Shown: positions 15,197 through 56,782 of the stretch, one piece after another
How the letters are laid out: each line of letters starts with the position of its first letter
Numbering within the stretch: position 1 is the stretch's first letter
Assembly: GCA_002840675.1 (NCBI GenBank)
Contig: PHBR01000002.1
Location: 1 to 57,034 of the forward strand
Origin: Chloroflexi bacterium HGW-Chloroflexi-9
GTDB taxonomy: Bacteria > Chloroflexota > Dehalococcoidia > UBA2979
Direction: 5' to 3'
DNA length: 57,034 nt
Program-made: the position numbers and the translations under genes
The notes under the pieces: generated by a model
Database searches by the model: none
What the model was told of the DNA's origin: nothing
The model's input: only the letters and a program-made list of their open reading frames with translations

Positions 15197-15235
15197 TTCC
15201 TAGCTACACCCGCTCGTCGCACCGCAGTTCATGCA
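15197..15235. repeat. Left copy of a 39-bp direct repeat (att-like); orphan last 11 codons plus stop of the RNR gene
   Basis: ttcctagctacacccgctcgtcgcaccgcagttcatgca matches 56744-56782 at 36/39 positions. The minus strand reads CMNCGATSGCS-stop and is preceded by an in-frame TGA. Confidence 0.75.
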
Positions 15236-15439
15236 TCACGAGAGGGGCGTTCAGGGGCGTCAACCGACGCCATTTCAGATTCAGCGAGCCTCGCGAACCT
15301 CCACGATCGGTCATGGCCGTTCATGGAAGTGGCCTCCTAGTGGCCTCCTGCTCGGGGGTGAAGTCGCATTGGGATCTGGACGTGCGCCGAGGGCGTTCAC
15401 AGACGTTCGTTGTCGTCCACTACCGTCCATGATCATCCA

Positions 15440-15628
15440 TTATTGGCCAGGGACGGTCATGTCCTGACCGCCCCAGGTACGCATCGACACGCCGGTGTTG
15501 AAGGAAACAGTGCGAGCAACTGGATCGGAGTGCTGGATGCTGTACCCGAGTTCACTAACCGCCGCGACTGCCGCCCGGTACGCGCGTTCAGGAGTCGCTT
15601 CGACAGCAACCTCTCTCGTGTCCGCCAT
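15440..15628 (-). CDS. Short ORF, possibly a truncated gene
   Basis: 62-aa ORF (MADTREVAVEATPERAYRAAVAAVSELGY...). It ends abruptly and no family is assigned. Confidence 0.25.
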   Translation of the reverse strand: MADTREVAVEATPERAYRAAVAAVSELGYSIQHSDPVARTVSFNTGVSMRTWGGQDMTVPGQ

Positions 15629-15800
15629 CTGGTGCGCCCTAACGATGCCCTAGTGCCGCTGATTCTCACGCATGCCGTCAAGGGACGGCAGCATCGTCAG
15701 TCATGGCCTGGTATTTGCATCGTTGGGCAGGGCTGACGGTCGTCACTCAGATCGGGTTCTGCTGTTGTTTCGTGATGGGTCGAAAAGGTAGGGGCACCCC

Positions 15801-15829
15801 TGCTGCTCTATCCCCTGAGCTACAAGGGC
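15801..15829 (-). other. tRNA 5'-half-like fragment (acceptor 5' strand plus D-arm only)
   Basis: The minus strand reads GCCCTTG-TA-GCTC-AGGGGATA-GAGC-A. No pairing anticodon arm, T-arm or 3' acceptor strand follows. Confidence 0.3.
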
Positions 15830-15968
15830 GTACCCCCGGTCTACCCAACCGGCGCGTGGGGGCGATCAGACGCTCGCCATCGCGTGTCTGCGTGAGCGGC
15901 AAGCGGGGCCGGATCGGGCGGAGCCGACGCCAGCACCAGAGGTGCGCCGAGAGCGGGACAGTGGGGCC

Positions 15969-54248: not shown

Positions 54249-55123
54249 TCATGCCGCATTGGTCGTCGGGACGGGCCTCCTCTCGTAGTCGACGGGGCTG
54301 AGGTTGCCGATCGAGGTGTGCCGTCGCGCGGGTTGTACCAGCCCTCGATCCACTCGAAGATCGCCCGCGCCAGCTCGGCCCGCGTCGTTCAGGGCTGCCG
54401 GTCCAGCAGCTCGAGCTGCAGCGTCCCGAAAAACGACTCCATCATGGAGTTGTCGAGCGCCGAGGCGACGCGCCCCATCGAGCCCAGCAGTCCCGCCGAA
54501 CGCAGCCGCTGACCAAACGCCCACGCCGTGTATTGCGAGCCCTGGTCCGAGTGGACGACGGTCTGCCCGGGCTGCGGCCGGCGACGCCAGCGGGCCATCT
54601 CGATCGCGTCCACGACGAGCTCGGCGCGCAGGTGGTCGGCGATCGACCACCCGACGATGCGCCGCGAGTACACGTCGAGCACCGCGGCGCAGTACACCTT
54701 CCCCTCGCGGGTCGGGTGCTCGGTGATGTCGGTGAGCCACAGCCGGTCAGGGGCGTCGGCGACGAAGTGACGACGCACGAGGTCGTCGTGCACCGCGGGC
54801 GCTGGACGGCGATGCTTCCCGTGCCGGCGGTAGATCCCGTGCAGTCGAGCGGCGCGCATCAGCCGCGCGACGCGCTTGCGACCGCAGCGGACGCCGCGTC
54901 CCAACCGGAGTTCGGCGTGCACCCGCGGCACACCGTAGGTCCCGAGCGACATGGCGTGGATCTCGACGATCTGCGCGCTGAGCGATGCATCGACGACGGC
55001 GCGCGCCGAGAACGGGCGACCCCGCCACTCGTAGTACCCGGACTCCGACACACCCAGCACCCGGCAGGCCACCGCGACGGATGTCCCGTCAGCGGCAAGC
55101 TCGTGGACCAGCCGGTTCTTCAT
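54249..55123 (-). pseudogene. IS3-family transposase orfB, nonsense mutation plus frameshift
   Basis: The 54389..55123 frame ends ...LQLELLDRQP-TGA, where copy A has Trp. It is followed in frame by TTRAELARAIFEWIEGWYNPR, and the last part (RRHTSIGNLSPVDYE) is in a third frame ending at 54249. Confidence 0.75.
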
Positions 55124-55410
55124 GTTGGGAGCACGTTCTCGCGAGCGAAGAAGGCAGCCGCACGCTTGAGGATCTCGTTCTCCAGCTCGAGCACGCGGTT
55201 GGCACGGCGCAGGCGCACTAGCTCGGCGTGCTCGTCGGTCGTCAGGCCGTCGTGCCGCTGGCCGGCGTCGATATCGGCCTGCCTGACCCAGCGGTTCAGC
55301 ACCGACTGGGCGATGCCGAGGTCAGCGGCGATCTGGCTGACGGGTTTCGCACGCTGCCGTGCGAGCTCGACGGCTCGCTGACGGAACTCCTCGGGGTAGG
55401 CGCGGGGCAT
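55120..55410 (-). CDS. IS3-family transposase orfA (HTH)
   Basis: MPRAYPEEFRQRAVELARQRAKPVSQIAADLGIAQSVLNRWVRQ...LELENEILKRAAAFFAREN. Start chosen by alignment with copy A. Confidence 0.8.
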   Translation of the reverse strand: MPRAYPEEFRQRAVELARQRAKPVSQIAADLGIAQSVLNRWVRQADIDAGQRHDGLTTDEHAELVRLRRANRVLELENEILKRAAAFFARENVLPT

Positions 55411-55579
55411 CCTGGACTCCTTCCGGGGCGACATCGTCGCCTCAGGCTAGGACTCCGGGAAAGTGGGGCAGGCTCACAACAGCGATATCACCATCGCCGC
55501 GAATGCACCGACATCACTGATGGACACACGGGCCCCCTTTTGTCCCAATCTTCCGATTGGACTCACAGATGTGGCTCAC

Positions 55580-56557
55580 CTATGATGGATAGTTGATATC
55601 CATGGTCTGTTCGCCAGGGTTCAGCGGCGCGAATGACGCTCGCGACGTTCTGCACCAGACATGGCTCAGGCGCATGCCGCCCCGAATGCGAAACCCATCG
55701 ACCGATCGGATCGGGGAGTCCAGCGCAGTCTCGAAGCTCGGGAAACGAAGGACTACCACATTCCACTTTCGGCGGACGACTCCGGTGAGGGGGACCCGGA
55801 ACTCGTCCAATGGCGTGCCAGAGAACCCCCACTGACCGAAGTTCGTCGAAACGTAGAGCTTGATCGCTCGACCGTCGGTCAGTGTGCAGGCCAGATAGAA
55901 ATGCACATCGTCGACCGGCATCACGCGAAACCCGACCGCACCAGCCCTCGCGTCCAAGGTGTCGCTCGGAGGAAATCGATACCCCTCGTCATAGGACGCG
56001 GCCGCGACGTAGCGCCTCGCAATCTGCAATTGGCCAGATCCCGCATACCGCACCCACCCGACGTCGAGCGCAAGGCGTCGGTCGCCGAGGTAAACACCTG
56101 CCTCCGACTGCTCGGGGCCGCGGTTCTGCTCGACGGCCACAACTGTGCCCGCGGTCGCGAACGTCGGGCTCGCGATCCCGGTCGCCTCCGATAGAGCGGC
56201 GATTAACACCCCGGCGTCTGTTTCACACGAGATCGCCATGTTAAATGAAAAGGGCGGGGGAATGCTGTCGGGAGAAAGGCCATCCAGCAGCACTGGAATG
56301 ACGGGCTTACCCAGTGCCCAGGCAGCACCGCCTTCGAAGAACAACCAGGGGCGACTTACGGATCGTCGCGAGAACGCGACGACGACGACCTGCGCGCTCC
56401 GCAGGTTCTCCTGAATCGATTGCCACCAATCAGCACCGGGCGCGATTTCCGAGCCAGATACATAGATTGTGAGTCCGGGCAAGCGCGAGCGAAGGTGGTC
56501 GGCGAGACGGTTAACCTCGTCCGCATCTTCTACGGCATGACTCATGAAGACATGCAT
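55580..56557 (-). CDS. TIR-domain protein with unassigned ~200-aa C-terminal domain
   Basis: Start probably MHVFMSH (56557). VFMSHAVEDADEVNRLADHL...IAPGADWWQSIQENLRSAQVVVVAFSRRSVSRPWLFFEGGAAW has bacterial TIR layout with a candidate catalytic Glu. The C-terminal half is beta-rich and unrecognised. Confidence 0.7.
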   Translation of the reverse strand: MHVFMSHAVEDADEVNRLADHLRSRLPGLTIYVSGSEIAPGADWWQSIQENLRSAQVVVVAFSRRSVSRPWLFFEGGAAWALGKPVIPVLLDGLSPDSIPPPFSFNMAISCETDAGVLIAALSEATGIASPTFATAGTVVAVEQNRGPEQSEAGVYLGDRRLALDVGWVRYAGSGQLQIARRYVAAASYDEGYRFPPSDTLDARAGAVGFRVMPVDDVHFYLACTLTDGRAIKLYVSTNFGQWGFSGTPLDEFRVPLTGVVRRKWNVVVLRFPSFETALDSPIRSVDGFRIRGGMRLSHVWCRTSRASFAPLNPGEQTMDINYPS

Positions 56558-56743
56558 CAGTAGGCGCGCCTCTGCGCCGGAGTATAGGTTGGTTGGCGGC
56601 GCCACGCCGATCCCCTGCTGGCGCGCTCGCCAGATGGCGGCGAGCGTGGGAGCACCATCGCCCTCTGGGCCGGCAGGCTAGTGGCCTCCTGACGCCCCTC
56701 TAGTGATTCCAGCGCGACACGAATCCCCAGTCATTTCAACGGG

Positions 56744-56782
56744 TTCCTAGCTGCAGCCGCTCGTCGCGCCGCAGTTCATGCA
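56744..56782. repeat. Right copy of the 39-bp direct repeat (att-like); the functional 3' end of the RNR gene
   Basis: ttcctagctgcagccgctcgtcgcgccgcagttcatgca matches 15197-15235 at 36/39 positions. All three differences are synonymous third positions on the minus strand. Confidence 0.75.

Follow-up and report, generated by a model that had tools for sequence, protein, structure and literature searches.

The window analysed here is a single metagenomic contig of 57,034 nt from an uncultured Chloroflexota bacterium. At its right edge lies the 3' end of nrdJ, the gene for the class II (B12-dependent) ribonucleotide reductase (RNR), on the minus strand (56747–57034; 95 codons and a stop, truncated at the end of the window and contig). 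The frame is open over 95 of 95 codons, runs off the window edge and is translated with the terminal residues ...GFEGDPCGECGQLMMVRNGTCLKCMNCGATSGCS*. Its homologues are annotated as B12-dependent RNR or RNR alpha chain, and the identical C-terminal motif ends full-length genes with Ribonuc_red_2_N, Ribonuc_red_lgC and TSCPD domains; by these names and this common ending the frame is identified as the C-terminus of NrdJ, in agreement with the initial annotation. The 11-residue tail in which it closes, CLKCMNCGATSGCS*, is shared across phyla and is common to Chloroflexota, Planctomycetota, Ignavibacteria and Nitrospirota.

A 39-nt direct repeat has its right, attR-like copy (56744–56782, minus strand) at the end of the working nrdJ, where it takes in the final 11 codons, the stop and 3 nt. 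The left, attL-like copy (15197–15235, minus strand) is an orphan nrdJ tail that follows an in-frame TGA and many other stops, and it has its homologue in the true nrdJ end of a relative, the MAG L007 described below. Both sequences are as first quoted: they lie in direct orientation, match at 36/39 positions and read CMNCGATSGCS-stop on the minus strand, with all three mismatches (GGC/GGT, GGC/GGG and TGC/TGT) synonymous, and the right copy is continued past the window edge by the open nrdJ frame. In an alignment of the copies with their surroundings, identity is limited to these 39 nt, the longest perfect block being 14 nt, and the window has no further copy of the 39-mer at up to three mismatches (0 expected in 100 shuffles). 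A match of 36/39 is far above chance for random DNA, yet alone is no proof of recent duplication, because the nrdJ tails of unrelated Chloroflexota MAGs are equally similar (23–37 of 39 identical, with 37/39 for the MAG contig L008 and the orphan).

A hairpin with an 18-bp stem and a 4-nt loop (15131–15166, minus strand) lies 33 nt past the orphan stop. It folds at −46.3 kcal/mol with z = −5.65 (0/200 shuffles as good) and is not listed by a simple terminator scan, because it has no canonical U-run. The hairpin had been taken for part of the old gene end, with a terminator-like role, and its conservation agrees with this: in L007 an intact nrdJ is followed by the same structure with compensatory stem changes (GGAAGGGG/CCCCTTCC to GAATGGGG/CCCCATTC).

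L007 (GTDB MAG, Dehalococcoidia bacterium, JAUXUW010000034.1) was reached from the nrdJ tail through a search for related loci, which were then folded and compared by blastn, and it is the one example of an uninterrupted site. A check set beforehand, that nrdJ of a close relative should run straight into the sequence left of the orphan tail, came out as predicted: in L007 the gene continues without a break into the homologue of 15235–15115, hairpin included, and the M14-peptidase gene follows about 1.8 kb further on. By blastn and alignment, L007 positions 55–176 correspond to the window nrdJ tail (89%) and the overlapping positions 140–261 to the orphan tail and hairpin at 15235–15115 (88.5%); by blastn, positions 1932–3044 correspond to the M14-peptidase flank at 9910–8793 (95.4%). 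Thus, the 41.5 kb between the repeats is an insertion relative to L007, and the orphan tail with its hairpin is the old gene end. The window nrdJ frame is intact after the insertion, the rest of the gene lying beyond the window. Scanned as an exact pattern, the empty junction expected from left flank, att and nrdJ has 0 matches among JGI metagenome contigs and GTDB genomes.

At the three variable sites of the 39-mer, L007 agrees with the working copy upstream of GCGACGAGCGG and with the orphan copy downstream of it, a switch that a crossover within this block predicts. For 58 nt, as far as the putative crossover block, the tail of L007 has the same sequence as the working copy. The last 12 nt of the working nrdJ and the 44 nt past its stop differ from L007. 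Just upstream, where L007 offers 54 nt of nrdJ linker, no alignment with the window linker is obtained; this would not be expected of an orthologue left untouched, although such linkers align among none of the loci compared.

The first 44 nt after the working stop (56700–56743, minus strand) form a "type B" flank, which is common to the nrdJ 3' flanks of the MAG contigs L016 and L008 and, more weakly, L005. As this flank is unlike that of L007 and resembles those of other MAGs, the new tail and flank would have come with the insert. The genes downstream of nrdJ in L016, L008 and L005 are unrelated to the island, and the window linker has no DNA-level match to the type-B loci. IMG/VR holds no match to the att or arm patterns (0 each for the type-B flank, a degenerate att and the right-arm motif described below), and JGI metagenomes hold 0 matches to the type-B flank. 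No second element at nrdJ is found in 12 GTDB loci, in five further contigs that reach the nrdJ end, in IMG/VR or in the literature; no integrase adjoins nrdJ in L005, L008, L016, L017, L018 or the other GTDB loci, and no locus examined has a second nrdJ tail within 10 kb. P0012, P0066, P0035 and P0078, short separate "nrdJ tail" proteins encoded on long contigs, were considered as orphan tails and rejected, being frameshift-split nrdJ genes. Three assemblies break inside the nrdJ linker.

The inserted DNA (15236–56743; 41,508 bp) is a mosaic island, absent from L007, of IS elements, defence-like genes and stress, redox and regulatory cargo. Its genes have a GC3 of 0.70–0.89 (mean 0.79, 35 genes) versus a flank mean of 0.92 (p = 1.3e-5); the nrdJ tail has a GC3 of 0.93, and the shift in composition at the nrdJ end falls on the stop codon. 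GC3 separates island from flanks, whereas tetranucleotide profiles, one of the measures proposed at the outset, do not (r = 0.94–0.98). By GC3 and by gene content, the island is unlike its flanks.

The cargo is of a kind typical of islands. One IS3-family element (54206–55476, minus strand) has 25-nt terminal inverted repeats (92% complementary), orfA at 55120–55434 and orfB (rve) at 54389–55123; a second copy in the same orientation (18649–19807, minus strand) has orfA and orfB with a 92-nt gap between them. A composite transposon bounded by the two was rejected, since the copies are only 72–85% identical and lie 3.4 kb and 1.3 kb inside the island ends. A DDE_Tnp_1 transposase fragment is weakly matched at 24131–24667 (minus strand; E about 1e-3). 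The first island gene beside nrdJ encodes a TIR-domain protein (55580–56605, minus strand; Pfam TIR_2 at 1.4e-16, PADLOC TIR-TM at 4.5e-8). A further minus-strand locus (51260–52975) comprises a fusion of a ParB-like N-terminal domain to a DNA methyltransferase (51800–52975; phrog_498 at 2e-62, PADLOC MTase_II at 2e-44) and a separate RAMA-domain ORF (51260–51667), which are probably one split gene. A DUF488 gene also belongs to the cargo. The mosaic content claimed in the initial annotation (IS copies, defence-like and stress genes) is thereby upheld, while its "many disrupted genes" reduce to the split ParB-methyltransferase/RAMA gene, a binding-protein fragment and the DDE fragment. In a megablast of the island against PLSDB plasmids only IS3 matched, an exact-protein look-up of the 148-aa, TIR and lipoprotein ORFs of the window returned no record, and the window has neither Rfam matches nor tRNA genes.

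The absence of an integrase gene, noted from the outset, holds in a search that includes leftover frames. Neither Phage_integrase, Resolvase nor Recombinase matches any island ORF or leftover open frame of at least 44 aa, the only finds being the IS3 rve transposases and the DDE fragment, and no excisionase, relaxase or phage gene occurs in the composition-supported ORFs or in unassigned open stretches of at least 44 aa. A PDB sequence search with four island ORFs returned no recombinase: the TIR gene has weak matches to TIR-domain proteins only, and three family-less ORFs have no meaningful match. The island ORFs lack Pfam families of the conjugation module that an ICE or AICE would have (relaxase, coupling protein or FtsK-like translocase, T4SS). 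Prophage features are likewise missing: in a PHROGs scan of ten island and flank ORFs, mostly without a Pfam match, only the ParB-methyltransferase matched, and Pfam scans of the other island ORFs revealed no phage structural, packaging or lysis family. In makeup the island is CIME-like, with att-like sites at both ends and no integrase, excisionase or transfer genes. As in a site-specific island at a gene 3' end, there are direct repeats, an intact gene, an empty site and deviating composition, but no recombinase gene of its own.

The inner ends of the island are structured. The left inner arm (15327–15350, plus strand; 92–115 nt inside the island) has two tandem copies of GTGGCCTCCT, the second within CTAGTGGCCTCCTG. 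The right inner arm (56678–56699, plus strand; 45–66 nt inside) has CTAGTGGCCTCCTG overlapping TGACGCCCCT by 2 nt. The 14-mer CTAGTGGCCTCCTG is common to both 160-nt inner ends (P about 0.0003 versus random segment pairs), the window has four copies of GTGGCCTCCT, three of them no more than 115 nt from an island end, and TGACGCCCCT of the right arm is the inverted partner of AGGGGCGTCA at 15253–15262 (P about 0.06 for an inverted 10-mer). To judge from sequence, the arrangement of the GTGGCCTCCT and CTAGTGGCCTCCTG repeats resembles arm-type binding sites.

To the left of the orphan tail (9.9–15.1 kb), the sequence is a variable zone of lowered GC and not plain core genome. An extra 3-kb segment outside the repeat-bounded island (9911–12903) is absent from L007 and holds a 450-aa gene (9912–11264, minus strand) and a beta-propeller lipoprotein gene (11482–12762, plus strand), and low GC (0.62–0.65) reaches about 2 kb left of the orphan tail. 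A tandem island was considered, its decayed third att placed close to the GC3 break at 11.3–11.5 kb, and rejected: neither the 39-mer (at 25/39 or better) nor the peptide motif occurs again, and the conservation of parts of 12.9–13.6 kb in relatives counts against it. An identical contig of another sample also covers the 11-kb stretch 410–11491.

The locus is probably the product of a Campbell-type, likely integrase-mediated insertion at the nrdJ end. The proposed incoming circle would have borne a short nrdJ 3'-end copy (11 codons with the stop, followed by about 44 nt of a flank characteristic of a different Chloroflexota lineage) and entered by a single reciprocal crossover within the last 36 coding bases of nrdJ, probably within GCGACGAGCGG, the catalyst most likely being a site-specific (tyrosine-type) integrase. 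Such an event would leave the reductase gene intact, ending in element-supplied sequence, and would displace the original tail and its terminator hairpin by 41.5 kb as an orphan. The zinc-ribbon tail CLKCMNCGATSGCS may serve as a stable, widely shared target, much as tRNA gene ends do. Later IS3 insertions and gene decay would have remodelled the element and removed its recombinase, so that the present CIME-like island may move only with an integrase supplied in trans. Of the site-specific integration with a replacement tail that was originally proposed, the insertion itself is borne out by the empty site of L007, and a tail supplied by the insert fits the last 12 nt and the 44-nt flank, both unlike L007; the part played by a recombinase is inferred. 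Weighing against this reading are the missing recombinase, the lack of a second nrdJ element, the unexceptional 36/39 match, the unaligned L007 linker, the low GC left of the orphan tail and the reliance on one contig.

Several of these points would suit a displacement in situ, in which a foreign chromosome piece (nrdJ, whole or in its 3' part, with the flank and about 41 kb) replaced the native nrdJ by homology-facilitated illegitimate recombination, one end being secured by homology outside the window, within nrdJ or upstream of it, and the other joined illegitimately at native codon −11; the orphan would then be a deletion remnant and not an att site. The nrdJ tails of unrelated MAGs reach the similarity seen between the two copies, the flank of the working gene also follows intact nrdJ in other lineages, where the genes downstream are ordinary and include no integrase, the linkers of L007 and the window do not align despite 95% flank identity, and no recombinase is found. 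Displacement is nevertheless unlikely, as the nrdJ tail has the GC3 of the flanks and not of the island, with the break at the stop codon, the window linker has no DNA match to the type-B loci either, and L007 is identical to the working copy over the 58 nt leading to the putative crossover block. Nor does displacement give a reason for a 14-mer common to both insert ends or for the clustering of motifs there. A circular plasmid or excised island could also have been inserted in Campbell fashion by host homologous recombination through the 39-nt tail, with no dedicated integrase; the end product (direct repeats, an intact gene and the empty site of L007) would be the same and the missing integrase gene would be explained. 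The homology, 39 nt with three mismatches and a longest perfect block of 14 nt, at most equals the length that RecA-dependent exchange usually requires, and such an event leaves open why the circle carried exactly a gene tail and flank, with motifs in both arms. This route is accordingly judged very unlikely.

Both junctions of the island are known from one metagenomic contig, which invites the suspicion that DNA of different populations was joined at or near the nrdJ tail and that the orphan and working tails lie on separate molecules. The identical contig of the other sample spans only 410–11491, and the assembly breaks in the nrdJ linker point the same way. An imperfect 39-nt repeat is, however, too short to mislead a long-k-mer assembler, each copy has unique sequence to its left and right, and a chimera would not give an orphan cut exactly at codon −11 behind non-nrdJ DNA, which makes an artefact extremely improbable. 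A bolder extension of the integrase-mediated insertion, for which the odds are low, is that the NrdJ zinc-ribbon tail is the attachment site of an undescribed family of Chloroflexota elements, whose attP would combine a captured nrdJ 3' end with AGGAGGCCAC-type arm repeats and whose recombinase would be of an unrecognised type among the family-less ORFs (e.g., 24700–26058, 35385–36398 and 50371–51249) or would always act in trans.

The locus adds a protein-coding target, the C-terminal zinc ribbon of a class II RNR, to the short list of gene ends on which islands land. It also identifies the region downstream of nrdJ as a zone of plasticity where assemblies of these genomes become fragmented, in a host lineage (Chloroflexota/"Dehalococcoidia" MAGs) that is uncultured and poorly studied and in which almost no mobile elements are characterised. 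The occurrence of the 11-residue tail in several phyla means that contigs could simply be screened for a pair of nrdJ tails to tell whether the nrdJ end is a general hot spot. The literature yielded no account of nrdJ serving as an integration site, whether with an integrase and attB or with a genomic island, and we know of no related ICE with a cognate integrase for the island.

Conserved 3' gene ends serve as attB for tRNA-gene-targeted islands and for the actinomycete integrative elements pSAM2 and SLP1. The nrdJ island similarly duplicates a short conserved 3' end on insertion and has accessory cargo of atypical composition; by contrast, its target is a protein-coding zinc-ribbon tail, and no int, xis, rep or transfer genes are found. 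The lambdoid phage 21 and the e14 element reside at the icd 3' end of Escherichia coli, where, as at nrdJ, the 3' end of an essential metabolic gene is replaced by a slightly different one and the old end is orphaned at the far junction. These are prophages with the integrase beside att, unlike the nrdJ island, which has neither phage genes (PHROGs) nor an integrase. The CIMEs of the ICESt1/ICESt3 family, at the fda 3' end in Streptococcus thermophilus, share with the island attL/attR-like repeats derived from the 3' end of a housekeeping gene, an intact gene and the lack of integration and conjugation modules of their own; the nrdJ island differs in its Chloroflexota host, its target and its putative mobilisation in trans. 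It is an ordinary kind of genomic island, at a target, nrdJ, for which we found no precedent.

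The island next to nrdJ, a class II (B12-dependent) ribonucleotide reductase gene, is framed by two 39-nt sequences in direct orientation: (i) a working copy at 56744-56782, which terminates a minus-strand open frame extending past the window edge (...GFEGDPCGECGQLMMVRNGTCLKCMNCGATSGCS-stop), and (ii) an orphan copy at 15197-15235, which reads CMNCGATSGCS-stop on the minus strand with an in-frame TGA and many stops upstream. The coordinates and the 36/39 identity agree with the initial annotation, as does the synonymous nature of all three mismatches (GGC/GGT, GGC/GGG and TGC/TGT). 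The hairpin it placed after the orphan stop is likewise found, 33 nt downstream with an 18-bp stem (-46.3 kcal/mol, z = -5.65). The working frame is, as had been proposed, a class II reductase C-terminus: its homologues are named B12-dependent ribonucleotide reductase, and full-length nrdJ genes on other contigs encode Ribonuc_red_2_N, Ribonuc_red_lgC and TSCPD domains together with the identical terminal motif. No further copy at up to three mismatches occurs in the window (chance expectation 0), and similarity stops at the borders of the 39 nt when 300 nt around both copies are aligned.

Across loci of Chloroflexota, Planctomycetota, Ignavibacteria and Nitrospirota, NrdJ always ends in the same 11 residues. 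Compared as DNA, unrelated MAGs of high GC have tails that match either window copy at 23-37 of 39 positions, and the tail of one compared locus, L008, is closer to the orphan copy (37/39) than is the working tail of the window (36/39). Because unrelated tails reach similar identity, 36/39 alone is no proof of a duplication event, and the case for insertion therefore rests on context. Ahead of the NrdJ zinc ribbon is an Ala/Pro/Val-rich linker with imperfect 27- and 42-nt repeats (56895-57032), within which three independent assemblies break (the window and the starts of contigs L007 and L016).

That context is provided by L007, a 3,045-nt contig of a GTDB Dehalococcoidia MAG (JAUXUW010000034.1). 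Its M14 peptidase flank matches window 9910-8793 at 95.4% DNA identity, and the peptidase proteins of the two share one 90%-identity cluster. The nrdJ tail of L007 (positions 55-176) is 89% identical to window 56867-56746 and continues with no interruption into positions 140-261, which are 88.5% identical to window 15235-15115. Thus, nrdJ joins the homologue of the orphan-tail and hairpin DNA directly, as the initial annotation had expected of an empty site, and, relative to L007, the two tails of the window are separated by an insertion of 41,508 bp. The hairpin is kept in L007 with compensatory changes on both stem sides (GGAAGGGG/CCCCTTCC to GAATGGGG/CCCCATTC), and the orphan tail with its hairpin is, relative to L007, the former end of nrdJ. 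At the three variable repeat sites, L007 equals the working copy upstream of GCGACGAGCGG and the orphan copy downstream. A reciprocal exchange within block GCGACGAGCGG would be expected to leave this pattern; the support is weak, as any of four patterns out of eight would agree with it.

The 44 nt 3' of the working stop (56743-56700) are unlike L007 and instead resemble the DNA after intact nrdJ in L016 (about 381-425), L008 (3721-3765) and, weakly, L005 (10121-10165). This type-B flank, with the core ATGACTGGGGATYC.GGTCGC.C.GGA, comes directly after the nrdJ stop in four Chloroflexota contigs that are otherwise unrelated, and is absent from L007. It forms no strong hairpin and matches no Rfam family. 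The genes downstream of nrdJ in L016, L008 and L005 are ordinary and unrelated to the island, and no integrase was found among them. The simplest reading of these alignments is that the insert brought along a captured 3' end of another lineage's nrdJ, made up of 11 codons, the stop and 44 nt of flank, and that the match between the captured end and the recipient would have been the coding 39 nt only.

Codon composition changes between flank and island: GC3 is 0.82-0.95 (mean 0.92) for genes in 1-11264 and 0.93 for the nrdJ tail, compared to 0.70-0.89 (mean 0.79) for 35 island genes (p = 1.3e-5). The compositional difference sought between island and flanks is thus present in GC3 but not in tetranucleotide profiles, which are alike (r = 0.94-0.98); the donor would therefore be compositionally close.

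The inner 160 nt of both island ends have the 14-mer CTAGTGGCCTCCTG in common in direct orientation; among 160-nt segment pairs drawn at random from the window, about 0.03% share a stretch this long or longer. The core 10-mer GTGGCCTCCT has four copies in the window (0.13 expected), two in tandem at 15329-15349, one at 56681 and one at 54039-54048, and is adjoined by an inverted 10-nt pair, AGGGGCGTCA at 15253 and TGACGCCCCT at 56690 (P about 0.06). With the ends joined via the 39-mer, the motifs fall roughly 20-115 nt either side of the core, a layout reminiscent of the arm-type sites of attP. Seen from the minus strand the motif is AGGAGGCCAC, and it could therefore also act in regulation or ribosome binding. 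The copy at 54039-54048 lies about 95 nt upstream of the start of a SAM-methyltransferase gene (53945, minus strand) and 167 nt from an IS3 end; given its minus-strand sequence, the motif may belong to a shared 5'-leader or operator rather than to a recombination site.

The insertion itself is well supported, while its catalysis is what we infer. An integrase-type Campbell insertion is the probable route: it would yield the repeat, the structured ends and the break in composition at the stop codon, besides the intact nrdJ, the empty site and the imported tail and flank. Counting against it, neither an integrase nor a second case is found. All ORFs with coding-like composition were scanned against Pfam, and some were also compared with PHROGs, PADLOC and NCBIfam; from the unassigned DNA between 12763 and 56743 (about 8.8 kb), each open stretch of 44 aa or more was scanned in concatenated form. 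Island ORFs with no assigned family lie at 24700-26058, 33157-33921, 35385-36398 and 50371-51249. No tyrosine recombinase, serine recombinase or excisionase is found in these ORFs or stretches, only IS3 rve transposases, which upholds the earlier 'no integrase' statement within HMM sensitivity on decayed fragments.

The main rival, an unlikely one, is that a foreign chromosomal segment displaced the native nrdJ through an illegitimate joint at codon -11. The type-B flank 3' of the working gene is in keeping with such a displacement, as is the lack of alignment between the window linker and the 54 linker nt present on the L007 contig; however, nrdJ linkers align between none of the compared loci, the window linker DNA is not type-B-like, the GC3 of the nrdJ tail equals that of the flank, and the end-associated repeats would be left without a reason. 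Of the minor alternatives, a RecA-driven Campbell insertion via the 39 imperfect nt is improbable, and an assembly chimera is very improbable.

The cargo of the island includes a DDE_Tnp_1 fragment and two elements of the IS3 family, which share 72-85% identity; the element at 54206-55476 has 25-nt inverted repeats at its borders. Defence-like genes are a TIR-domain gene adjoining nrdJ, the SAM methyltransferase, a ParB-methyltransferase with a detached RAMA domain (51260-52975) and two DUF488 genes (34201-34734 and 49579-50169). The ParB-like N-terminal and DNA methyltransferase domains (phrog_498) are separated by a 132-nt gap from the RAMA-domain ORF; a frameshift or stop appears to have divided what was a single orphan methyltransferase gene. 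One DUF488 gene matches the 'inactive N3' subclade and the other the PADLOC candidate defence family PDC-M45B (1.7e-29). The cluster at 26163-31273 looks like an oxygen or nitric-oxide stress module: it encodes two hemerythrins with DUF2249 between them, a regulator of the Crp/FNR type and a 470-aa membrane protein that weakly matches COX1. Further cargo comprises a dehydrogenase, an epimerase, a Rieske-FAD reductase, UDG, Ada-AlkA, an MFS transporter, an S51 peptidase, a GreA-like protein, a two-component pair, an acetyl-CoA hydrolase and a rhodanese. Adjoining ORFs at 20355-22870 (270 aa; 564 aa with DUF6065) look like tandem paralogous domains; a 55-nt segment occurs in them three times, at 64-76% identity. 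The stretches 43749-44180 and 44199-44578 hold a periplasmic binding-protein gene, of which only the C-terminal half of Peripla_BP_2 is left, and adjoining DNA. The latter shows 66% identity to a complete binding-protein gene of locus L023 (2180-2566), which lies near a homologue of the 148-aa ORF of the left flank.

The window, one whole 57,034-nt contig, has a GC of about 68%, which is 0.62-0.65 from about 13 to 17 kb, spanning the orphan tail. Relative to L007, the window has 3 kb more at 9911-12903, where a gene for 450 aa lies beside one for a beta-propeller lipoprotein, and 13021-15114 differs from L007, which has a 501-aa ORF there. L019, L020 and L023 have yet other genes at left-flank positions, with 12904-13614, including the 148-aa ORF, kept at 87-90% identity. 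Given these differences, the whole stretch downstream of nrdJ is a plasticity zone, of which only 15236-56743 is repeat-bounded. Between the M14 peptidase gene and the conserved block 12904-13020 is a cassette-like variable spot (window 9911-12903; L007 1894-1932; L019 709-1798; L020 2-2193), which holds the 450-aa and lipoprotein genes in the window, nothing in L007 (38 nt), a 347-aa gene in L019 and L023, and both kinds in L020; no repeats or recombinase account for the exchange. The core flank carries a cadherin/Big_9-like repeat protein gene (6707-7900) with a 273-nt internal periodicity (54-nt repeat, 87% identical). The nearest nrdJ tails are from MAGs of uncultured Chloroflexota ('Dehalococcoidia bacterium'), as is the sole named close relative of one flank protein. 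L001, a MEGAHIT contig (ENA sample ERZ27239241), is 100% identical to window 410-11491. It ends 10 nt inside the lipoprotein gene (start 11482), just beyond the fall in gene GC3 from about 0.92 to about 0.8, which suggests strain variation or low coverage from there onward.

No conjugation or phage module is found in the island, and its features are not those of an ICE, a prophage or a composite transposon; the lack of an integrase also sets it apart from autonomous integrative elements. The island belongs to an already known kind, with a target, nrdJ, for which no report as an integration site was found in the literature. The arrangement at nrdJ works like those of phage 21 and e14 at icd, of ICESt1/3 at fda and of tRNA-targeted islands, and the closest match to the present state of the island is the CIME, which is att-flanked and without mobility genes.
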